The notes: generated by a model from the sequence alone, not told the origin. A stretch of 63,916 bases of DNA, filler included, from 12 parts of 12 records of this genome joined end to end with filler, not necessarily neighbours in it, one strand, 5' to 3'; counted from the whole stretch's first letter, positions 1 through 20,080 are shown. Numbers and translations: made by a program.

Positions 1-3000
1 GATCCTGATGTGTTATTGGAATGTATTCTGAGCCTTGTTGCAATTCGCTGTCGACTTCAAGCCACTCAGTGTGCCATAGAACCTTCATTCGTTCTTGCTG
101 CTGATTGCGCTGCCAGTCCAATTTGCCTGTTGGCAGACAAATCACAGCAGCGCCTACCATCTCACATATCAGGCTGCCTGTGTCGTCGTATACGTTGATG
201 TCACCATCTTGCATACATTGCGACTGTACTGGCTTTGCGAAAGTTTTAGCCAAGGCTGTGAGCCTACACTCATTTAACCCCGAAAACACGTATGGCCGGC
301 CTCCGTGCAATCCATCTTGCAGCACTATTGCCTGGCCACACGCATCAGTGGATGCGATGCACTGCGTGGAGTGATGCTCGCAATGATCCAGGTCGCCCGA
401 TGGTGCACTCGAATCATTTACTCTCACTAAAAGACCATCCTGGTCATCTGATGCCCCGATCGTCTGTACTATTCTAAACCCCCCTCGATAGTCATTGCCA
501 ACGCTGGCATAAAATGCAGAGCCGCTGAGAACGATTGCGTCAGCCGAGGCAGAACTATGTCTTATTGCTCCATGAGGTTTCCCAGAACTTGAGCGCACAA
601 GCATGGCTGCGTGGCATTGCAGAGTATCGCTTCCGTGGAAAGACAGCACCTCAAATGAATCGGTACTCAGGTTCATCTGGGATCGAACGGTTGGCGTCGT
701 GCTTGAATTGTCCAGAAACAGAAAGTCTGTGATTTCTATGTCGGTCACAGTCAGGTCTTCTGTCGCTGACGGCCCAGCAAGCGCAGCAAGCTGGAAAAAG
801 TAAGCACCTGGTGTGACAGGAGTACGACCCACGCAATGGTCGGCCATGAACATCATTGTGGTCTGTGACCAAGTGTATTGCCAAACGGTTACTTCGCCGC
901 TCGGCACTTGCATTGTCCCCAGTACAGGCCACTCTTTGCTTTCTGAACTCTCCCACCATGAAAATGCCATGCGCTTAAAGCGCAAGCCTGGTCGAGCAGA
1001 ATGCTGTTTTGTGCTTAATGTGCTCTCCAGAATCATGTGAGCGTTTGTCCCTGTGTAACCGAACGAACTGGTTCCGAGACGCACGCCATTGAGCATCGAA
1101 ATCTGCGATGAAAGCAGGCCGCCAAAATCTAGGATATCGAGGAAAGGGTTGGGCACTTTCAGGTGGAGGTTGCTCGTCAAAACCATATTTTGTATCACAG
1201 ACGCAGTTTTAAAAATGCTGACGGCTCCTGCTGCGATCTCCAGGTGACCAAAGCACGACTTCAGAGCTCCAACTGTCCATGGGTGCTGCCAAGAAGCGCT
1301 GTCAAAGACCTGACGAAGTGCTCCCATTTCAATGGGGTCACCTAATTCTGTCCCAGTCCCATGTGCTTCCACACCGTGTGATTCTTCACCAACTAAATCG
1401 ATGGCCTTCCAGATGACATTCTGCTGAGAGGGGCCATTGGGCGCCATCATGCTAGCACTTCTTCCATCTTGATTGATGGCAGAGGCCCTCAGCTGGACGC
1501 CGGCTCTGTTGCTTTCGATGACAAGCGATACGCAGCCTTCGCCTCGCCCAAACCCATTAGCGCTTGTGTCGAATGTCTTACACTGACCATCGGGTGAAAG
1601 GGCATGCACGGCACATAGAGCCGTCCACACCCAAGTTCCACACTCAAGCATCACTCCTGCACACGCCATTGCACTGCAGGTCCCAGCCTTCAAGCCGAGA
1701 TGCCCGACATCGAGGGCAACCAGAGAAGACGAGCATGCTGTGTCGACAGTCATGCAAGGGCCGGTCATTCCAAGAAGATACGACAGGCGACCAGAGGCGG
1801 CAGCTGGATGCTTTCCGTGAGCAGTGTACACGTTGACTACGCTATCCATTGGTTCCCAGCCGCAGTACGAGTAGCCAATGCAAATCCCAATACTAGAGCC
1901 ATGAAGTGCACTCTGACTATGTCCAGCAGAGCTGAGTGCCTCATATGTCGACTCAAGAAGTATACGCTGCATAGGATCAGTATTCATCACTTCAGTTTTG
2001 CCCATATTAAAAAGCTCTGCGTCGAACATCTCTGCACCACAAACAAAGTGACCTCCAGCTACATAGAGTGCAGCCTGGGTCTGCGAATCGCATCGTGAAC
2101 CAGGTATACTTGCAAGACTGCTATCTGATGACAAGAGGGAAAGCCACGTTTTGGATGACTGTCCGTTGTCTGGAGTGCGGCTGTGAGCCCCAGTAAGGGC
2201 AACAGCTACACTTGAAACTGGTTCTGTCGCGGAGGTTACTTTCTGGGGGGCACGCCGTGAGGTGCTTGTGGAAGAGCGGATGTAGTTGATGATTGCATAC
2301 GGCGTAGGATAATCGAATACTAGCGTTCGTGGTAGACGAGGTGCAGACGGACCGAGAGCTTCTTGCAAGGAATGGCTCAGCCGGACTGCACCCAGTGAAG
2401 TGACACCAGCTTCAATCAACGACAAAGAAAGTGGTATATCAAACCCCGTAAACTCTTGTATGTGCGCAAGAACTTCCATGGCTGTACTGTCTTCATTTAA
2501 GCTCTCAGACGAGGTTGGGCTGTCATCTAGGCTTAGCTGACCATGATTCTGATCTGTGTCGAGTTGAGACGGACCCCCGTCTGGCCATTCAGCTAGTATA
2601 ACGATATCGTGAGGAACCATATGCTGCGGGAGATGGGCTTTGCATTTCTCTAGAAGTTTGCTTCGTGTAGTAACCCAAGTACTACCTGTGCTTCCTGGCG
2701 TATCCACAAATCGCCCCCTTGTATCCATTGGGTATGGAGGAATCGAGTCACAACGAGTCTTTCCCATCTCTTCGACAAACTTGGAACTTACCATGTCAAT
2801 GAAAGACTTCACGTCAGGAAACTTGGTCAACAAGATTCGCTTCGCTCCAGTCAGCAGGCTGTCGACAAGACGTGCGAGTTCAGGAATGTCTTCGTAGTCC
2901 CATTGCTGCTCGATCCAAGTGCACAGCACAGAAGAACTTGACTGCCATCGTGTCATTGCTGCTTTGAAAACGTGCGGGTTTCTCATCATCAGTAGCTGCA

Positions 3001-6000
3001 TGCGAGAAACCATTCGTGCAAGCATAATGTTGGAGAAGGACCCGCCTTTTGGAGTCACATGCATCAAGCTTTGTCGGAATACCTCTGGGTTCTCTAGATG
3101 TTGACGTTGGTGCAGTTGGTATTGTGGATCACAAGTAAAAGTGCACGCGGGACTTTTGTTCAAGAAAACAAAGTTACGTGTATCAAAGCTTGGCATGATT
3201 CCTTTCAGATCTGGTAATTTCCATCCAATGCACTTGATAAAAACATCACAAGCTAGAGTATCACCGCTTCTTTTGAGCACTACGCTGGGAGGGGATGAGA
3301 TACAAGCGTCCACAGCGTCTTTGCGCACTCTCAAAAGGCCAACCCGGTGGGCTCCAAATATGAAGTCGGAGATTGAGGGTTGTGCACACGTTTCTCCCGA
3401 CATGAAATGGCCCATTGCCTCTTCCCCGAGGGCATCTGATGTCATGCCAGCCCACTCCTTCCATCCTTCGTAGATCTCCTCAATCTGTCCAAATGGTATT
3501 CCACCTAATGAGGTGAGATAGTTCACCACACGTGGCCAGACTTGAAACCCACGTCGAAATAGCAGAGTTGCATGTGCAGCACCGTGCGTGAGGACAATAC
3601 GCACATTCTCCGTAGCAAATGCGCCATTACCGACTATTATAACCCGTTTGCCATCAAGCCGTGTGGTGTCAATGTCTCCGCACGTTCCATAACCCACTTG
3701 CGTGCCTGACACGGCTTCAAACTCAGCTTCACCTGGCCAAACCAATTGACGGGGCACGTGCTGTGCTCCAATGGCTACGAAAATTCCACGCGCAATTATT
3801 GTGCAGACTTTGTTCGTTTCGACATCACAAAACGAAATTTCCACGCGCGGCGTGTCAAATGTATTGTCGCAATGAATGTTTGTCACTTCCCTGCCATAGG
3901 AGATCGTTTCATTGAGTCCTTGCTGTTCGATGAAGCTAAGGCCATGCTCCACCAGACTTTTCTGCGGAGTGTAATCGGGCAGGTTGGATGCAGGAAAGAA
4001 ATGATACGTAGTGGACGTCACAGCAACATGAGAAGATGGGTTGGCAGCAGCAGTAGTTTGCCAACACCCCAGGGGACACATTCGCTTCTCGAGCACACGC
4101 ACAGATAATCCAGCTTGCTTGAATTCATCAGCAGCTACAAGACCCAGATTCCCGGCACCAACCACTACCATGTCTACATCAAATCCATCCAAGGGTTCGA
4201 AACCAGCACCGATCTCGCTTGTAGAGGTAGATGAACAGCCGAGAAGCTCATCTCTTCTTGTGGAATCTTTGATCTGAGCTTTTACTTGCTCTAGCGCGGT
4301 TTGCATGATGGGCTGTTGCTGTACAACAACATAAGCCCGAATCTGTTTCTTACCACTTGCCTCGTGTTTGCTAATGTAAACATCATTTACACCCGGTACT
4401 TGCCTAATGATCCTATCGACCTGTTCGAACGAAGCAGGACAAGTGGGACGATTGGACTTAACGTGAAGCGCTGCGCGATCGATTTTCCCAGAAACAGTCA
4501 TCGGCCACGCACTCAAGGTAGACACAATAGACGGAACCATGTAGACTGGCAGAACATCAGAACAGCGTTCCCTTATGGCTTTGATGTCAACATCCTCAGG
4601 AACAACAAAGGCTTCCAGCCGATCGTTGCCTGATTTCGTGTGATGCATTCGGACTATGGCCCCTCGAACTTCGTTCACTTCTCGAATCACGGCTTCGATT
4701 TCTCCGGGCTCAATGCGCTGGCCATGAAGTTTAAGCTGGAAGTCCATCCTGCCGCAATACTCTAGCTTACCACTTGTTGACCACCGTACACGGTCGCCTG
4801 TACAGTACATTCGTTCGAGCTGCCCTGATTCATGTGCAAACGCTCTGACGGACGCATCTGGCGCATTGACATATCCGCGCGATAGATGCACACCTCCAAG
4901 CATAAGCAAGCCCATGACGTTGCATGGCAGGGGCAATCGGGTCACTGGATCCAACACAAGACAGCAGACATTAGGCAATGGATCACCAATTGTGATGCTG
5001 GCTGATGACCCAGTGTTGTCCAGCTCGTCACTCATGCACACGCCGCTAGCATACGCAGCTGCTTCAGTTTGGCCATACAGATTCCAAATACGTGAGCCAG
5101 CAAAGGATTGTTCATTCGAAATCCGACTGGCCATCTCGAGGCTGACTGATTCCCCGCTGAGAACTAGATTGCGTAAGGGCAAACAGGCTTCCTCTCGCCA
5201 ATGCTCAAGCAAGAAACTGCACAGGGAAGGCACAAAAGACGCGTGGTCGACAACATTATGAGTCAAGATGAGATGCAGCCTGCTGGGGTCCATCAGAATA
5301 TCTGGATTTGGAATCACAAGTTGAGCACCCATGGTCAGACTGGCCACCAGCAACAAAGTACAGTCAACAAAGGTATAGGTTGTCGCGTGAAGCACGCAAT
5401 CCACAGAAGTGATGCAGAGCTTAGAAGTGACGCCTGAGGCTGAAGACATCAACGAACTGTGTTCCAATGCTGCAGCTTTCGGTGCTCCGGTTGAACCACT
5501 GGTAAAGATCACACAGGCGACATCTGCAGATGAAGTTTGGGCAGAAAAGACCCTTTGATTACGATCTGGTGCAGTGGGACAAATCTCGATGACCAAAACT
5601 TGCACAGCTTTCATTGATGAGAGCTTCTCCACAAACTGCTGCTGAGCCAAAATCAGACTGCATTCGCATTGCTGGAACATGTAAGCTAGCCGTGGTTCTG
5701 GGAACTTAGGATCCAATGGTACGTATGACATTCCTGCACGCAGGATGCCAATCATACCCTGGACTTCACGAAAACTTTTCTCGGTCGTTAAGCCAACAAT
5801 GGCCCCTGGCCTTGACGCTGTGCAGCAGCGTGATGCGAGCTGAGACGTTAAGCTTTCCAAGTGAGAGTATGTGATATGTTGAGCTCCATTCAAAGCAACA
5901 GAGAGCCCTGGGCAGAAGCAGTTTTCTTCGAATCCTCCATGAACCGTGCTGGAGGCAGATAAAGGCGCAGCCGTGGCAGTCCACCGTGACAGGATTCCGG

Positions 6001-9000
6001 CATCGGTCTCTAGCATCGCGGGAATGAGAGAGAGAGGCCTGCCAGGTGCTGACGTGACGGCTGTGTTGAATTCGTCAAGATAGCGAGCTAGACGTACCAT
6101 CGAAGACGGCGCAAAAATCTCGGAATTGTAACAGATTACCCCACAGAGTCCCTTCCCAGAAATAGGGGACACATACAGCTCAATTTCGAATTTCAGAAAG
6201 CCACGATAGGCCTCAGCCCAAGGTTGTAGAAACCTGTGAAGAGCCGCCTGCACACCAACCGGGTCATGGCTTCATTCAAAATGACACACCTCTGTGTCGT
6301 CGCAACAAGGCTCGGGCTGAAGGCCATCCATTGCACATTCAGAGTTGCTCCAGCCTGAAGCAATCCAATTCAAGATTGCTTGACACAGGAGTGGACGATC
6401 GCGATAGCGATGCTTTGGATCCAGCACGGCGTAGACCACCTCAGCAAAGGGAGTCTCGCCGTGGTCAAGGGACGCTAGTGTTGCCTCAGCAGCGTTCGCA
6501 ACTGTGTATCGAAAGCATTGCTCTTGATGGAGATGAAGGAGGACAGGAACAGTATTCACAAAATATCCGACCACGTCCCTCAAGGCTGGATGGCCCCGAT
6601 TGACAAAATGCGTGCCTACCACCACAGAGTGTTGTGCGCCGAATCTGCAGAGCACTGTGGACCAGAGTGCCAGCACACCATGCATCAAGCTAGCATTCCC
6701 TGCCATACAGAGCGCTTCGAGGTTGCTTGATGCCCTGATTCGTATCTCTACGAAATCTGAGTGCCCTCCAGGCGTTGAAGGCCGAGAAAAGTCTGTCGGC
6801 AGTTGTAGCACTGGTGGGTCTCTCAGGTGTGACTGCCACCACGCTAGCTGCTCTTTGAGTTGATCTCCCTTTAAAAAGTATGAGTGTTGCCAAGTCGTGT
6901 AGTCGGCATATTGAACAGCAGGTTCGAGCAACTTTGGCTCCTCGCCGAAGACGAGACTGTTGTAAGTATCGCTCAGATTTTTCCGCAGCCATAAGGCTGA
7001 GACCCCATCCATAGCAATATGATGCATGTAGAGACCGATAAGGTGAACTGGTTCACTTTGCATGTGAATGATTGCCAAACGTACTGCTCCTAACTCAAGA
7101 ATGAAGGGGGTTTGCATCTCTCCCAACAAAAGCTGTAACATCCATGGGACATCAGACACGACATTTTCCCTGAAAGGTGCACTCCACGAGAGATCTGTAC
7201 AAGCTGTGGGAAGCATATCGTTCTCATATTTGTAATGAGTCCGTAAGACATGCTGTACCTGTGAACAGAGCTCTAGGGCATCCACCAATGCGCTGGTGTG
7301 TAATGAGCCTCTCACCCAGTCGAGCCACACTGGCTGACTGTAGGTTGACGAGCTCTTGTCCATCTCATAAAGCGCCCACAAGGACTGCTGTTGGTAAGAC
7401 AGCAACTGTGGCTCGGCAGAGTCCACCACGCGCACTAATTCTGGCCCCTGTGTATCGTAGACCCTGGGAGAGTGGCTAGCCGAGTCGATCATACCGATCT
7501 GGCTGGCGATGAAATCTACGATAGCCGATGCAGTAGGATAGTCAAAGACGAGCGTGCTCGAAATCTTGACAGCCGAGCCAAAGTCATGCTGGAGAGCACT
7601 ACGGAGCTCTACTGCCTTTAACGAGTTCACTCCGCTGGCCATCAAGGGTGCGTCTGCACTGGCACTTGTCCCAATTATCTGCTCAACTCTCTGAAGCACG
7701 GTTTCTTCGATCAACTTATGAAGGCCCTTTCCTTCTGGATTAGCTATGCTTGCGACCAGTGCTGTACAGCTGTCTTTTTCAAGGTTCCTGCTTTGTTGCT
7801 GTTTCATGGTGCGAGCAAGCAAGCTTAGAACTGCTAGAGCGGGACGGTGGGTCCTGAGCAGTACAGGCCAGTGTAGGGGAACAAATGCAGTGACCGGGGA
7901 CGTGGTACAAAGTGCAGTCCGCAAAGCACGCATCGCTTGGTCCTCAGTCACACGTCCTAGTCCATGTTCAGTAAAATGAGCCACACCTGCCTGCCCAAAT
8001 ATATCAGCTCTTGCCCAGACTCCCCACTGGATACAAGCTGCGGGAAGTCCGTCACTGGATCTTAACCTTGCAAGCGCATCCAGAGATGCACTGGCCGCAG
8101 CGTGGCTGGCTTGTCCTGAAATACCGATCGACGCCGCTATCGAGGAAAATAACACAAAAATCTGCAGACTAGCGCATTCACCACTAGCCTTGTGCAGGCT
8201 CCATCCAGCGTGTGCCTTTGGCAACCACACGTTCTGTATGCGTGCCTGTGTTTGCTTTGTTATAGCCGCATCTGTGAGGACACCGGCCGTGTGCACCACG
8301 CCCGCTGTCCTGGTGCCTTCTCGTTCAAGCGTTTTGTGCACCTCCTCAGTCTCTCTGATGTCGCACAGCTCCGTCATCAAACTGGCCTGCGTTGACCCGG
8401 AACCAGAAAGCTGCTGCCAAGACTGCGCAGAGTCTGAGGCTGTCACCCCGAGTCCCAGGAGCACCAGTTCGCCAATGCCATATCGCACGAGCCAGTTGGT
8501 CACACACAGACCCAGCGGACTGGTTCCGCCGGTCACGATACAGCTGACTTGCATGCTGTTAGCTCTCCATGCCGTGCCGCCGTTCATACTTACCACCACC
8601 TTGCCAATGTGACTAGCCTGTTGCAAGAACCGGAATGCTGCTACCCCATTGGCAAGTAGATCGAAGGCATGACTCGGCAGAGCTTGAGTTTCACCTTGAC
8701 TCGCTGATTGACGAAGCGAGGTGAGGACGCCCTGGACCCACCACTTATCATCAAGGGTGCGAAGGTCAAGCCGTACGACTTCATAGGCCAAATCCGGCCT
8801 CAACTGTGCGGTTCGGTGCACAGTCCATACGTCCCTTTTACCCAGCTCGATGAACTTTCCGCCCGACCGAAGTGCAACCATGGATGCCGGAATGTATGTT
8901 CCATGTGATAGGCTGTTGAGCACAGCATCTAGCTGGCTGGGACCCATCATATATTGTATTGACGCCTCAAATCGATGTGCATTGCGAGTAGTACTAATAA

Positions 9001-11194
9001 GGTTGACACCTAGAGATCGCAGGAAGTGCTGTTTGTCGAGGTGGCCAGCTGTTGCATAGACGCTGAAGCCGCCTTGCACGGCACGGCACACTGCGAGGAG
9101 TCCAACTCCACCCGTTGCAGCATGGACTAGAATGGAGCCACCAGCTCCCAAAGCAAAATACTCTTCGAGCGAGGTAAACATGGTCGACCACGTGCTCGGC
9201 ATTGTGCTTGCTGACTCGTAAGTCCAGTCCGTAGGCTTGGTAGCAAGCATTGCAGCATTGGCTGTACTGAAAGAGGCAATGCCTGAAGCAAGTCCAAATA
9301 CTTGACTCCCAAGGTCATGCAACTGACTTGAAGACTGTACAACTATTCCAGCGCAGTCACTACCTGGTCTCTCATCTGCCTGAAGCGCAGGAGTTAATCC
9401 CATAACAAGCAACAAGTCGCGGAAGTTAAGTCCAACAGCCAGGGTTTGGAGGACAATTACACTGACTGAAGGAGCCTTGACGAGCCTAGATTGTAGGTCC
9501 ACTGTTAGTGCATTGACAGAGCCTTTGTTGCGCGGACAACAGAGCTCCACTGGTCTCCTGGTCGTGCAGATAGCAGTATTTTGTAGCCGTGGCACCAGGC
9601 GAGCTCCATCCTTTTTCAAGGCTACCATGTCGTCATCCAGATGGGCATGGTCCATAGTTGCAATCAACTCGGCCACACGTGATGCAATGCAGGCTTCCTC
9701 GATCGAAATCAGTAAGCATTGACTGAGGCAGCTCTCAACAGTAATAGTTTTGACCAGGCCGGAGAGTCCAATGCCAGCGTGCACTCCAGTATAGGTGCGA
9801 TACACTATCCACAGAGGAATAGTGGTTGACAGAAGTGACTGCACCGTACGTAGGGCGTTGCAGATGGAGGAAAAGGCCTTGGAGTGGTCACTGCATAGGA
9901 GCAGCACACCATCAAGGGGGCTACCTGCTTTGAGCTCCTGCACGTTGGGCTTATCTGGGGATATGCACAGCACAGTGTGTGGTCCTAGCATCGCTTGCAA
10001 GTCAAAGTGCCAATCTGTATCGTCTAGAGCGTCTAGGCTGTATACAAGCACGCGGTGGAACTCTTGGCGCGCGTTCTCGAGGGGCTTCAGAGCCTCCCAA
10101 ACGACGTCATAGAGCTTTTCTTCACGCACTACGTCGCTTTGTAGTGGTCCGGAGTCAGTTATACAGTGCTGCCAGCACGGTTGTAGGACCGAGCTATAAT
10201 GGCAGCCCGCAAGAGCAGGCATGCTCAGAACTAGGTGAGCATTAACACCACTCACAGCATGCGCATGGATCGTGAGGAGAGAGGGCTTGTTGCTCTGCTC
10301 TCGGGGCACCGTAACCGGCTCTGATGGCACAGTGACACTGTTGCCGCAGAGCATGTCAATAGGCCGAGCAAGGTGAAGCACAGCAGGAGCCTCACTAGCG
10401 GTACAGCATACCTTCAACAGAGCAAGTATGCCAGCCGCTGTGTAGGTGTGTCCGGCGTTTGCCTTGTATGAACCAGCGACCAGAGGGAGCCGTTGGCTCT
10501 GATCAGCTCCAGCAATACTGCTGAGCACAGCTCCCATTTCCACAGCATCTCCCAAGCGGGTGCCCAGCCCATGCATTTCAGTATAAGCCACTCGAAAACT
10601 AGAAGCTTGTGCATTTTGCAACGCCCCTGAAATCACCCTCTCCTCGGCATCTTGGTCAGGTTGTCCAGGCTGCAAGCTTGTATCATCAAAATTCGTATCG
10701 GAGCCAAGGATGGCAACTTTCGCTAAAGAGCACACGTCACTGAGGCGAAGCAGCATACCACCACAGGCTTCACCTCGAACGAGCCCATCCGCATCCTTAT
10801 CAAAGGGACGTGACTTGCCAGAGGGGGAAAGGATGCCAAAGCCATCGGTGACCATGCTTGTTTCTGGGTTTAGCAGCAGCAAAGTGCTACCTACAACGAC
10901 AGTCCGTGCCATTTGCGATCGCAGGACACTGCATGCACGGTGTGTTGCTACATGGCTGCTGGAGCATATTGTGTTGATGTTCTCAAAGTGGCCACAAATT
11001 TTGAACAGATTTGCCATTCGACGTGGTGCCATAACTTCATATGATGCATGCTGTCTATAGTCGGTGGAAGTCACTGATGTGATGATGGCTGCATGACGAA
11101 ACTCAGGATCATGAAGGCCACAACCTGCATCAGAAATTGCTTCCATCAAGACTTGGGATAGTACACAATCTGTAGGATCTAGCATCCGTGCTTG
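1..11194 (-). CDS. Hybrid AT-less type I PKS-NRPS, partial at both ends: KS-(psiKR)-ER-KR*-ACP-C-A-(Asub/FMO)-ACP-KS-DH
   Basis: One reading frame from 11194 to 2, broken only by a TGA inside a 42-nt GT-AG intron (6248-6289). Motifs: KS1 NTICSSS/HGLGT/GHTY; ER GLNFRD, HAATGGVG, HIGKVV; KR VTGGTSPLG, AGVLTD; ACP GVNSL..VFDYPT; C domain HHIAMDG (~7000-7030); A domain YVPLDP, IFTSGSTGAPK (~5480-5510), NLYGQTE, YCTGD, GRMDFQLKLHGQRIEPGEIE, GKIDR (~4475-4490); FMO GAGNLG (~4142-4160), GNGAFA (~3613-3632); ACP GVTSL..VFDYPT (~2290-2450); KS2 DTACSSS (~1725-1745), HGTGT, GHLE; DH DHCVGRTPVTPG (~805-843) and DACGQ. Confidence 0.95.
6248..6289 (-). other. 42-nt spliceosomal intron in the PKS-NRPS C domain
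   Basis: GTGTGT...ATGAC...GTGCAG, phase 0, contains the in-frame TGA. Its size matches the other introns in the window and removing it restores the open frame. Confidence 0.8.
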
Positions 11195-11294
11195 NNNNNN
11201 NNNNNNNNNNNNNNNNNNNNNNNNNNNNNNNNNNNNNNTTAATTAATTAANNNNNNNNNNNNNNNNNNNNNNNNNNNNNNNNNNNNNNNNNNNN
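11195..11294. other. Artificial contig-joining spacer (first of 11)
   Basis: N-run/TTAATTAATTAA/N-run, 100 nt. The same spacer occurs at 17055-17154, 20178-20277, 23837-23936, 29190-29289, 32941-33040, 37740-37839, 47086-47185, 51237-51336, 55458-55557 and 60798-60897. Confidence 0.99.
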
Positions 11295-17154: not shown

Positions 17155-20080
17155 CGGGGGCGCCGCCTCCAGGGGCGATGCAGTCTGTTGGTCAGACCGC
17201 AGCTGTACCCAGTTTTTACAATCCCAAAGCTGAGCTTTCAGCCGGCACAGCGCCTCAGGCGCTTGCTCCGAAGCCTCAGTCTGAAGCTGATCCCAAGGGG
17301 AAACCATCGGTATGTATGCTTCCTGATCCTCTGGTGCCCGGCTCTGACATTATGTGTTGTAGGGCGGTAATGAGCCACGGCGGGCAAGCAATGGCAAATC
17401 AAGGATCGATCCTGCACAAATTCCACGTCCTGCAAGTTCAAACGAGCACAAGGCGCTCAGAAAACTGCAGAAACCTAAAGTGGACCCCGTAGATTCCAAC
17501 CCCAATGTCATGTCTGCAGAACCAGCCACAGCCAACTGTTCTCCATCTTACATGCGAGCTACTCTCAACCAGATAGGCAATGCTGAGACAGTGGCAAAGC
17601 CGACCATGTTGCCTCTCGGTGTAATCGTGAAACCCCTACAAAATGATGGCCCAGAAGAAGATGCAGTAGGACTAGTAGATTCTGGACTGATCAGATGTAA
17701 GGCCTGTATGGGCTACATGAATCCATTCGTGCGGTTTGCTGATAACGGGCACACCTGGATATGTAACTTATGCTTCACAAAGAACACTGTTCCCCAGGTG
17801 AGTTTTGAGAGAATCACCCAATCATCCGTGTCTAGATTGCCCCACGTCTGCTCAAGAATTTGTGTGACTCCTCCTCTGCAGGAATACTACTGTGGCTTTG
17901 ATGGTGCTGGCCGGCGTTATGATGTACAACAGAGGCCTGAGCTGCGGTATGGCCTGGTGGAGTGGATTGCACCTCCAGAGTTCAGCAAGCGGCCCGCGCA
18001 ACAGCCGAATTATTTGTTTGTGGTTGATGTATCTTATGTGGCAGTGTCGTCAGGTGTGCTTGGCATGTGGTTCTCTGCCATTCAGGAGGTGCAATTATGC
18101 CTCCCTAGCAAATCGCACAAACAGCCAATGACCACACAAATCGTGGCAGGTCCTAGACTGCATTCAGGATCCGAGGGCGAAAGTAGGGTTCATCACGTTC
18201 AACCGGTTTGTGCAGTTCTACCACTACAGCAGCAATTCAACTAGGCTGAGATGTACAATTGGACACCAGCTCGACCAGGTGCCTGCTCCAGCCAATATCA
18301 GTCCAGGCTGACGCATTCTGGCCACCAGGTTGGGAGCCCAGTGCCTCACGGCATTCTGTTCAGCCTGGCCAATGAGAGGTTTAAGGTTGAACAGATCATG
18401 AGCACAATCCAACAGACAGAAGGGGCGAACCCTGTTGCCAATGCATGCACTGGAGCTGGAATCCTGGCAGCCGCTTCTGTGCTGGACACTCTAGGTGGAA
18501 AGGTGATGCTGTTCACAGCGTCAGGGCCCAGCTGCGGCCCTGGTACAGGACCTAAGGGTTTCAACGAGAAAACCATTGTTGGGACTGTTGATGAACGGAA
18601 GCTATACCAGCCTCAGGATGGATATTGGCGCAAGCTTGGCCTTGCATGTGTCAAGCGATTTGTATCCGTAGACATATTTGCAGCAGATTCGGTGACCAAT
18701 ATGGCCAGCCTATCACATGTGTCCAAAGTGACAGCTGGACAAGTATATCGTGCCACCTCTTCAGGGCTGCACTATCGGAATACAGTGATGATGAACCTGC
18801 GAAGAAATCTACTCAGAAAGCAAGGCTGGGAGGCAGTCATGCGGATCCGGGTCAGCAAAGGGCTGGAGATTTCCAACTACTATGGCAACTTCAACATGTG
18901 GACTGAGCATGATATGGAAGTTGTGGCCATTGACTGTGACAAGGCTGTGGCAGTGCAGTTCAAATATACGGCTGATATACTAAAGAATCCTGTGTGCATT
19001 CAGGCTGCTATGCTTTACACAAACCAGGTGCTCTGCAGTGCTGCCACTATTGTACTCTCGAGCTGATAGTGGCATGTGACAGAGAGGCGAGAGACGTATC
19101 CGGGTGCTGTCGCAGCAGTTGTCTATCACCTCACAGCTAGCCAACGTGTTCCGCGGTGAGTCTCATCTTGCTGCTGAGGTGTAAACTTACTGTCCTGGTA
19201 GGTGCTGATGTTGACGCAATCATGAACTTCTCGCTTCGCGGATGCTTGCAAGCTTGCATCAGCTCCACCATACAAAATGCCAGGGACGTTGTGCTAAAAC
19301 GAACCATCAGTTCACTGCATGCGTATCGCAAGTGTGTCCCTGCTGTATTGTGAGAGGCTCACTGCCCTACCTGCAGGTCTTGTGCTCAGAGCAGCTCACT
19401 AGCTCAGCTCATTCTGCCCGAATCGCTCAAGCTGTTACCACTGTACTCTCTGGGTCTGCTCAAGACTACCCTGCTTCGCAAAGGTAGTGAAGTGAGCTTT
19501 GATGAGCGATCTTTCCTCATCGCTGCATTCAACAGCATGCCTATTGTCACAGTGATCCGCTACATGTACCCTATGCTCGTTCCACTACACAACTGTAATG
19601 AGGTTGACAGTTGTGGGACCATTCTAGAGGACAAGGTTGCAGCCTTATCCCCACTGGACATTGACATTTGGGTAGGTTACCATGGCCATGCCCGGCTTTG
19701 TGTCGACCTCGTCTGAGAAGCTGGAATCGGATGGGATCTATCTGCTGGACACTGGGCTTGCGCTCTACATCTGGGTTGGGCGGCATGTGAGCGCCCAAGT
19801 CCTACAGGGCATGTTTGGGGTGATAGCATTTGAGGATGTGTTGTGTGATGCATTCCCACTGCTTGAGACGCCGCTGTCGCAGACCGTAAACAGAATCCTG
19901 AACTATGTACAGGAGCAGGGCCAGTTCTGGCGACCAGTGGAAGTGCTCAAGCAGAAGAGCCCCCAGGAGGTCAAACTGTATGCTTCAATGGTGGAGGATA
20001 AATCTGCCCCGGGTTACAACTTCAGCTACGTCGAGTTCCTCTGTCATATTCATACGCAAATACAACAAAAGCTAAAGTAA
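17155..20080 (+). CDS. SEC24: COPII coat subunit Sec24 (C/D-like), 5' partial, multi-intron
   Basis: RIDPAQIPRP, NCSPSYMRAT, zinc finger RCKACMGYMNPF..WICNLC, FVVDVS, GWEAVMRIRVSKGL, QAAMLYT..GERRIRV, QLILPESLKLLPLY, SYVEFLCHIHTQI. TAA at 20080. Confidence 0.95.

Follow-up and report, generated by a model that had tools for sequence, protein, structure and literature searches.

We describe a 63,916-nucleotide stretch of DNA (hereafter the window, to whose positions all coordinates refer) that carries, on its minus strand, part of a megasynthase gene in which one nonribosomal peptide synthetase (NRPS) module has an unusual anatomy. A class B flavin monooxygenase (FMO) lies between the two halves of a degenerate adenylation C-terminal subdomain (Asub), and the adenylation (A) domain directly upstream retains a complete Asub of its own. 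Read along the minus strand, the order is condensation (C) domain, A domain, 14-residue linker, Asub-like N half, FMO, Asub-like C half, peptidyl carrier protein (PCP) and ketosynthase (KS). The explanation that we favor, with a probability of roughly 0.6, is that this pseudo-Asub is the vestige of an Asub that once carried the FMO at the point between motifs a8 and a9, and that it now stands, non-catalytic, with a complete A domain before it and the carrier behind it. We infer for it the role of a scaffold. The module would accordingly represent a natural case of a tailoring domain that rides on a spare, non-catalytic Asub and not on a working one.

The flanks of the FMO were identified with a profile hidden Markov model (HMM) of the Asub, which was built because single-sequence tests proved weak. 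The profile has 92 nodes, derives from 373 Asubs in the 120 best bacterial NRPS relatives of the A domain, and was run with all filters off on P0001, the unaltered 2084-residue product of the open reading frame (ORF) at 2..6253 (-), which runs off the window edge. Exactly three domains were returned: the real Asub (residues 506-596, nodes 1-91, 92.0 bits), the N flank (residues 611-656, nodes 13-58, 10.6 bits, E 4e-5) and the C flank (residues 1196-1227, nodes 51-82, 13.2 bits, E 6e-6). The two weak matches are complementary, one on each side of the flavoprotein. In 2000 local shuffles of residues 597-2084 the top score was 6.3 bits and none attained 8 bits (0/2000), and the top score among 181 other ORFs of the window (33,283 aa) was 3.1 bits. 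On this profile evidence, the flanks are complementary halves of an Asub at a level well beyond chance. A preliminary description of the window, prepared from the DNA alone, had already proposed that a non-catalytic second Asub element brackets the oxygenase, and the three profile domains bear this out. It had also predicted one full and one split match to the Pfam family AMP-binding_C. The full match was recovered on the real Asub (residues 518-590, profile 1-76 of 76), but Pfam otherwise touches only the N flank, below its cut-off (residues 612-661, profile 2-54, 16.6 bits, E 0.016), and the split match emerges from our own Asub profile instead. All of the motifs quoted in that description are present in P0001 as reported: SGKIDRAAL at residues 588-596 (4466-4492), EQVDRIIRQV... 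from residue 610 (about 4325-4426), VVVGAGNLG at 696-704, FEAVSGTQVGYG at 845-856, VIIVGNGAFA at 871-880, DVFIKCIG at 1003-1010, and CKAHLPQHMVP... from residue 1204 (about 2582-2644). Its designation of the N flank as a second A8-like segment needs amendment, however. The segment is Asub-derived (nodes 13-58), but it is not A8-like, because what it matches is the helix, two strands and start of a further helix that come after A8, the A8 hairpin itself (nodes 1-12) being missing.

The second Asub copy is thus without nodes 1-12 at one end and without nodes 83-92, the A10 region, at the other. In the profile alignment, the column of the A10 lysine (Lys590) is occupied by Gln within the string ..PSQLD of the C flank, in keeping with the earlier report of an A9-like segment devoid of that lysine. 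Hydrophobic core positions and an A9-like LPxxMVP are preserved. Judged by the residues it has lost, the second copy is non-catalytic. Its insertion point (nodes about 51-58) is the same as in canonical interrupted Asubs, which occur in 7/120 of the bacterial NRPSs; the first halves of these end at nodes 50-70 and the second halves restart at nodes 35-53, with six of the seven restarting at nodes 49-53. All seven keep nodes 1 and 92, score 40-69 bits per half, and have no extra intact Asub in the module. The module in the window therefore has a tailoring domain within an Asub between a8 and a9, as interrupted A domains do, but the Asub that is interrupted is not the catalytic one bearing A8 and the A10 lysine, and a complete Asub lies directly upstream of it.

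The distance to the carrier is informative with respect to origin. From node 82 of the degenerate copy to the carrier serine, Ser1286, there are 59 residues, and bacterial junctions have a median of 59 (5-95% range 56-61, n=353); from the real Asub to Ser1286 there are 699. When 365 Asubs are ordered by their identity to the flanks, that of the module itself comes only 52nd, and no DNA repeat was found between the two Asub copies. A recent self-duplication is ruled out by the absent repeat together with that rank. The preliminary description had spoken of a duplicated Asub, and this part of it could not be upheld: there is neither a DNA repeat nor a BLASTP match between the copies, the real Asub is only the 52nd of 365, and the carrier spacing is held by the degenerate copy. 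Because of the 59-residue PCP junction, and because the flanks resemble the module's own Asub no more closely than they resemble those of bacteria, the sequence suggests that the degenerate copy was the original resident, part of an ancestral A domain interrupted by the FMO in the canonical way, and that the intact A domain is the newcomer. A complete A domain set before an older, resident FMO-interrupted Asub fits better than duplication; an old tandem duplication may be the alternative origin. Under either origin, the evidence suggests that the copy made redundant then decayed and lost its catalytic ends.

The A domain upstream is complete, and the earlier statement that it is intact through A10 holds: in addition to the 92-bit Asub, A3, A5, A6, A7, A8, A9 (LPVYMVP) and A10 (SGKIDRAAL) are all readable. 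The motifs of a C-A-PCP elongation module are likewise present (HHIAMDG, FTSGSTGAPKA, NLYGQTE, YCTGD, LPVYMVP, SGKIDR, GVTSL), with the caveat of an in-frame TGA in the C domain. The best match in the PDB to the large core of the A domain (Acore) is LgrA 1245-1712, and the second module of LgrA activates glycine. Read from the profile alignment, specificity positions 235-331 are V D L S V S L A Y, plus Lys590. Position 235 is Val, with the Asp displaced to 236, in an A4 region that reads TYTFVDCTLLL. Asp235 is found in 335/343 bacterial A domains and the Val235-Asp236 pattern in 2/343 (P0203_2083 and P0206_691). We take this pattern to be the mark of beta-amino acids such as beta-alanine; our literature searches returned no text on a beta-alanine specificity of V235-D236. 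By analogy, the A domain likely activates a small amino acid.

The FMO itself is about 495 aa long and displays a flavin adenine dinucleotide site (GAGNLG...EKR), an NADPH site (GNGAFA...FRR) and a KCIGW motif. Pfam places Pyr_redox_2 at P0001 residues 694-898, and AlphaFold2 (AF2) models the domain with a predicted local distance difference test (pLDDT) value above 90. Two Rossmann dinucleotide motifs and the fold place the enzyme in class B, and with both motifs and a confidently predicted class B fold it looks competent. Foldseek returned DiatB (1.4e-18) and the oxygenase-acyl carrier protein (Ox-ACP) structure of LbmA (6e-18), together with FMOs and Baeyer-Villiger monooxygenases (BVMOs) at 1e-18 to 1e-14. 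Searched against the PDB, a profile of the FMO family found the LbmA Ox-ACP best (8odw, 6.5e-34) and DiatB next; steroid monooxygenase and phenylacetone monooxygenase (PAMO) were matched at 1e-29 to 1e-24, over the N-terminal half only. The FMO/BVMO fingerprint FxGxxxHxxxY/W was said earlier to be replaced, and FEAVSGTQVGYG does stand in its place with the His substituted, but the FMO clade as a whole shares this trait, which is not a local decay: F.G.I.YG-like strings with no His are seen in all eight of the aligned relatives that extend across the site, whereas DiatB keeps FAGTILHSLDY. The alignment places Ala opposite the Asn that had been mutated in DiatB.

An exhaustive search yielded 381 relatives of this FMO, 16 of them at E 1e-30 or better. 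The closest full-length relatives (P0002 and P0008) comprise A-PCP, a membrane/hexapeptide-repeat region and a C-terminal FMO, and such proteins link the clade to carrier-bound substrates. More distant relatives are Ox domains in polyketide synthase (PKS) modules, arranged, for example, as KS-FMO-ketoreductase (KR)-ACP or as acyltransferase (AT)-KR-ACP-FMO-hydrolase. As side observations, an architecture that we did not recognize, consisting of A-PCP, a long predicted-membrane/hexapeptide-repeat region and a C-terminal FMO, recurs in P0002, P0003, P0006, P0007 and P0008, and a 2246-aa relative, P0068, combines an AMP-binding core, a second, amine-oxidase-like flavin site at about 580, the FMO at 1085-1292 and a short-chain dehydrogenase; our Asub profile finds no Asub in P0068 at 6 bits or more. 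With regard to chemistry, LbmA-Ox has been proposed to oxidize a glycine starter to the oxime, a proposal that its authors base on collinearity (PMC7586987, excerpt), and the PDB title of LbmA Ox-ACP names ethyl glycinate as ligand. Because LbmA-Ox is the nearest solved relative, the analogy favors oxygenation at the nitrogen of the carrier-bound amino acid and makes a Baeyer-Villiger reaction less likely. The preliminary description had pointed to oxygen insertion by FMO/BVMO enzymes in trans-AT PKS lines; the class B FMO is as it said, but with LbmA-Ox as the best solved relative its Baeyer-Villiger analogy is weaker than that with an N-oxygenase.

Structural prediction was informative for one flank more than for the other. 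AF2 was run on residues 500-1340 with alignment rows covering the flavoprotein only. For the N flank, where there were no alignment rows, it returned helix-strand-strand-helix at pLDDT 63-77, in the same order as in the AF2 model of the real Asub; in the C flank a single helix reached about 70, and the rest of that flank, like the PCP, was poorly resolved. The modeling of the Asub-FMO-ACP region that had been proposed at the outset thus resolved the FMO and gave the N flank its expected elements, but not the C flank or the PCP. When the two flanks were submitted as separate chains to complex prediction, they scored 0.39 as against 0.02 for the best of three controls, which counts as "weak support": the mark is reached by 51/78 solved complexes and 2/108 mismatched pairs, but at 0.60 or under it is reached by 5/78 solved complexes and by all four of the mismatches that passed (of 180). 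Contact agreement among the flank-pair runs was at least 82%, and partner pLDDT at least 62. Because structures of Asubs have already been solved, a pass for the flank pair denotes likeness and not binding. Taken as models, these results indicate that the two flanks likely form a pseudo-Asub fold.

How such a module might work can be outlined as follows. The two halves would pack into one small Asub-like fold that joins the ends of the 540-residue insertion, and, with these ends held together, the carrier would stay on a short effective tether. The pseudo-Asub would present the FMO to the phosphopantetheine arm, and the intact Asub would be free to make its adenylation/thiolation swing without cargo. 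The FMO would oxygenate a carrier-bound substrate, the likeliest reaction being N-oxygenation of a small amino acid that has just been loaded and awaits acylation by the upstream C domain; an N-hydroxy amide would be the product. A bolder extension, which we put forward only tentatively and regard as doubtful, is that a pseudo-Asub with its guest enzyme constitutes a portable, self-contained adaptor between any complete A domain and a carrier, here, in a marine eukaryote, coupling a beta-amino-acid-type A domain to a new carrier-directed N-oxygenase clade and giving a hydroxamate or other N-oxygenated link within a polyketide-peptide.

The layout appears to be rare. The preliminary description would have been undermined had the architecture been common in characterized NRPSs, and in the sets examined it was not: none of 152 FMO relatives has it (0/152), the Asub profile matching no partial flanks in them and nothing beyond six ordinary Asubs, each full-length and belonging to a genuine A domain, and, of the 120 best bacterial NRPSs related to the A domain, none contains a Pyr_redox or FMO Pfam family (0/120). 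Pattern searches gave 38 matches to the layout in metagenome contigs and four in prokaryote genome contigs, none of which was confirmed, and the ESM Atlas gave no usable match. In the literature searched, supplements excluded, an intact A domain followed by pseudo-Asub halves that both lie after A10 and enclose a class B FMO is undescribed.

P0001 is preceded in the same frame by the ORF at 6272..11185 (-), and the two together amount to roughly 3,700 residues. The sole stop between these giant ORFs is a TGA at 6272-6274 (-) inside the C domain, at a column that is the Leu of a conserved ..KFDL.. motif in bacterial C domains, and alignments cross it ungapped. A 42-nt GT..AG intron containing the TGA was considered and ruled out, as bacterial C domains align through the site without a gap. 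A genetic code in which TGA specifies Trp is argued against because P0001 has no in-frame TGA in 2084 codons. An erroneous base, a nonsense allele or read-through might each account for the TGA. Four RNA-library runs, labeled as seawater or as marine metagenome, contain contigs that are 92-100% identical, most of them at least 99%, to parts of the gene. Those spanning 4437-4683 and 4366-4516, from two runs and with 0-3 differences, lead from the Asub and A10 into the N flank and are collinear with the genome there, with no joints. The greater part of the gene has no contig over it, the TGA and the FMO/C-flank/PCP joins being among the gaps, and on these the contigs are uninformative either way. 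The 20-letter end of one contig, which maps to 4532-4551, was treated as a contig-end artefact. Within 2300-4900 of the window, no repeat liable to mislead an assembler was found.

Several observations weigh against the vestigial-Asub interpretation. BLASTP aligns nothing between the real Asub and the N flank. Searched alone against the PDB with phmmer, the N flank gives nothing significant (the SrfA-C Asub at E 1.2), nor does the C flank (TioS 884-910 at E 1, amid chance matches to green fluorescent protein), although these non-significant matches nonetheless fall on the correct parts of SrfA-C and TioS. AF2 leaves the C flank and the PCP below pLDDT 50, and the fold predicted for the flank pair may derive from solved Asubs. 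No orthologue was found among the FMO relatives or in the metagenome or prokaryote contigs. The substrate assignment, which depends on the meaning given to V235-D236, is soft. The chemistry of the FMO may be unusual, because its clade is without the fingerprint His and because the DiatB Asn column holds Ala. With a C domain upstream, condensation would be blocked if the amino acid were oxidized all the way to an oxime, as has been proposed for LbmA. Finally, the TGA in the C domain, 1.8 kb upstream, means that the gene is possibly broken or the base wrong.

Other explanations differ in what they dispute. The flanks may be neutral fossils, that is, decaying leftovers of an A-domain replacement or duplication that form no folded unit and serve as mere linkers, with the FMO functioning equally well without them. 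In favor of this are the scores of 10.6 and 13.2 bits, as against 40-69 bits per half of working interrupted Asubs, the loss of both catalytic ends, the low AF2 confidence for the C flank and the presence of such flanks in 0/152 FMO relatives. We nevertheless think this explanation rather unlikely, for the canonical length of 59 residues separates node 82 from Ser1286 exactly, the hydrophobic core positions and the A9-like LPxxMVP are retained, the flank pair scores 0.39 against 0.02 for controls, weak support as this is, and StsA offers a precedent in which such a fold can be structurally needed (PMC10510592, excerpt).

A second line of dissent accepts the anatomy and disputes the chemistry: the FMO could act after condensation, on the acylated intermediate and not on the free amine, by Baeyer-Villiger oxidation, epoxidation or S-oxidation in the manner of the Ox domains of trans-AT PKSs. 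LbmC-Ox and OocK do perform Baeyer-Villiger insertion (PMC7586987, excerpt). The FMO's more distant relatives sit as Ox domains within PKS modules, BVMOs are among its Foldseek matches, and the 3,700 aa of the gene within the window contain no AT domain. This alternative deserves to be kept in view, but we consider it improbable on balance, given that the BVMO/FMO fingerprint is absent throughout the clade, that the best profile match is LbmA-Ox and not a BVMO (those matches being confined to the N-terminal half), and that the FMO sits in an NRPS module right after loading and not after a KS. Far less credible is the notion that the layout is an artefact, either a mis-assembly of two modules or the functionless arrangement of a pseudogene. 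The frame is open for 2084 codons through all of the junctions, RNA-library contigs of two runs bridge the Asub, A10 and flank (4366-4683), the catalytic motifs of the C, A, FMO, PCP and KS domains are all intact, and the region has no repeat by which an assembler might be misled; against this stand the masked N runs of the window, the TGA at a conserved Leu column, and the FMO-to-C-flank and C-flank-to-PCP joins, which RNA-library contigs leave unbridged.

Table 1. Positions in the window of the domains and segments of the megasynthase gene, with the basis for each assignment.
Feature	Position	Strand	Basis
Condensation domain	5990..7405	-	Pfam Condensation on ORF 6272..11185, residues 1261-1590; HHIAMDG; in-frame TGA 6272-6274
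Acore, A1-A7 and start of A8	4739..5926	-	Pfam AMP-binding, P0001 119-461, E 1.9e-50
Catalytic Asub (residues 506-596): A8 hairpin, A9 LPVYMVP, A10 SGKIDRAAL, Lys590	4466..4738	-	Own HMM; Pfam AMP-binding_C
Linker HVKSNRPTCPASFE, 14 residues, A10 to second Asub-like element	4424..4465	-	Translation; RNA-library contig bridge
Pseudo-Asub, N half (residues 611-656 by HMM; helix on to about 670)	4244..4423	-	Own HMM; Pfam
Class B flavin monooxygenase (residues about 690-1185)	2699..4186	-	Pfam Pyr_redox_2 and others; AF2; Foldseek; family profile
Pseudo-Asub, C half (residues 1196-1231): helix, A9-like LPQHMVP, strand IVILAEWP, degenerate A10	2561..2668	-	Own HMM
Peptidyl carrier domain	2279..2473	-	Pfam PP-binding 1261-1325; Ser1286 in GVTSL, window 2396-2398
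Downstream KS, Cys (DTACSSS) and His motifs	1160..2206	-	Pfam ketoacyl-synt 1350-1582, Ketoacyl-synt_C 1588-1698
Dehydratase (DH), N-terminal part, after KS	689-913	-	Pfam PKS_DH_N, P0001 1781-1855

Coordinates of the gene's features are collected in Table 1. By Pfam, the ORF at 6272..11185 encodes KS, enoylreductase-like, KR, ACP and C domains in that order, the HHxxxDG motif of the last lying at residue 1388 and reading HHIAMDG, and P0001 continues with the end of the C domain, A, flavoprotein, PCP, KS and DH; Pfam finds no AT domain in the part of the gene inside the window. The rest of the window is eukaryotic, with genes for Sec23/Sec24, DNase II, a peroxidase, an aldehyde dehydrogenase and a NIPA transporter. 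The zinc finger, trunk and beta-sandwich domains of Sec23/Sec24 are split across two adjacent ORFs at 17480-19066 (+), as is expected for a eukaryotic gene with introns. GC content, taken in 2-kb steps, ranges from 0.49 to 0.70 across the window, and the values for the megasynthase gene are among the lowest (0.49-0.56). Two 44-N runs with 12 bases between them occur together at 11 places in the window; one such pair, at 11195-11294, is just upstream of the ORF at 6272..11185 and conceals where its KS domain begins.

Should the spare fold indeed be a true adaptor, it would serve as a template by which tailoring steps are added and the alternation of domains is left undisturbed, and it would carry the idea of a pseudo-Asub beyond keto-acid/KR modules. 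Were it also portable, assembly lines could swap the activating domain, and hence the substrate, and yet keep their on-line tailoring. With its catalytic ends decayed but its 59-residue carrier junction preserved, the pseudo-Asub has the look of a dated scar left by A-domain replacement. The gene is, moreover, a megasynthase of eukaryotic plankton whose FMO belongs to a clade so far found mostly fused to carrier-protein machinery and without a characterized member, which makes it relevant to natural-product discovery.

Tailoring domains nested between a8 and a9 are established (PMC8949500, section 3.3). In canonical interrupted A domains, such as TioS A-M-A (PDB 5WMM) and IndC with its Ox domain, the guest is placed as in the window, at about nodes 50-60 and with A9 and the carrier following directly (PMC8949500; PMC10510592, excerpt). 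There, however, the module has no Asub besides the interrupted one, which is catalytic, whereas here an intact Asub lies 14 residues upstream of a degenerate copy. The guests named in the portions of these sources that we cite are methyltransferases, oxidases, reductases and monooxygenases; the class B FMO of the window is a type not listed in them (PMC8949500; PMC10510592, excerpt). Among the bacterial relatives of the A domain, P0197 carries PF00296 beside its NRPS domains. Monooxygenase (MOx) domains also reside in the glycine A domains of the myxothiazol, melithiazol and corallorazine-like clusters. They are luciferase-like, and hydroxylate the alpha carbon to cleave the chain. They resemble the case in the window in that a monooxygenase is encoded within an A domain (PMC11342130, excerpt), but they are not two-dinucleotide class B FMOs and that excerpt describes no second Asub, on both of which counts the module in the window differs.

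LbmA-Ox (PDB 8ODW) is, like the FMO of the window, a class B FMO in an assembly line with a carrier-bound small amino acid as its proposed substrate (PMC7586987, excerpt). It differs in following a non-elongating KS (A-PCP-KS0-Ox-ACP), in having no Asub-like flanks, and in acting on a starter unit with no C domain upstream, and its identity to the FMO of the window is low (16% in the Foldseek alignment). The closest published analogue of the flanks is the split, non-catalytic pseudo-Asub that adjoins the KR in StsA (PDB 6ULW) and Dol15D-M2 (PMC10510592 and PMC13643306, excerpts). The preliminary description had not recognized the arrangement, and its exact layout is indeed found in no relative, but the pseudo-Asub of StsA is a published counterpart (PMC10510592, excerpt). 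As in the window, a non-catalytic Asub-like element consists of two separated pieces and adjoins a tailoring domain, and the real A domain remains intact. In StsA, about 30 residues stand N-terminal to the A domain and about 70 after the KR, so that the pieces bracket A and KR together in a module with a keto-acid A domain, whereas here both pieces come after A10 and enclose the FMO only, the real Asub being the only other Asub-profile match in P0001. The two-segment, non-catalytic Asub-like element is nonetheless apparent at the level of the profile, and its fold is suggested by the AF2 match of the N half and by the weak complex score of 0.39. The anatomy is real and unusual, and it extends both interrupted A domains and pseudo-Asub scaffolds, its mechanism and product being inferred.

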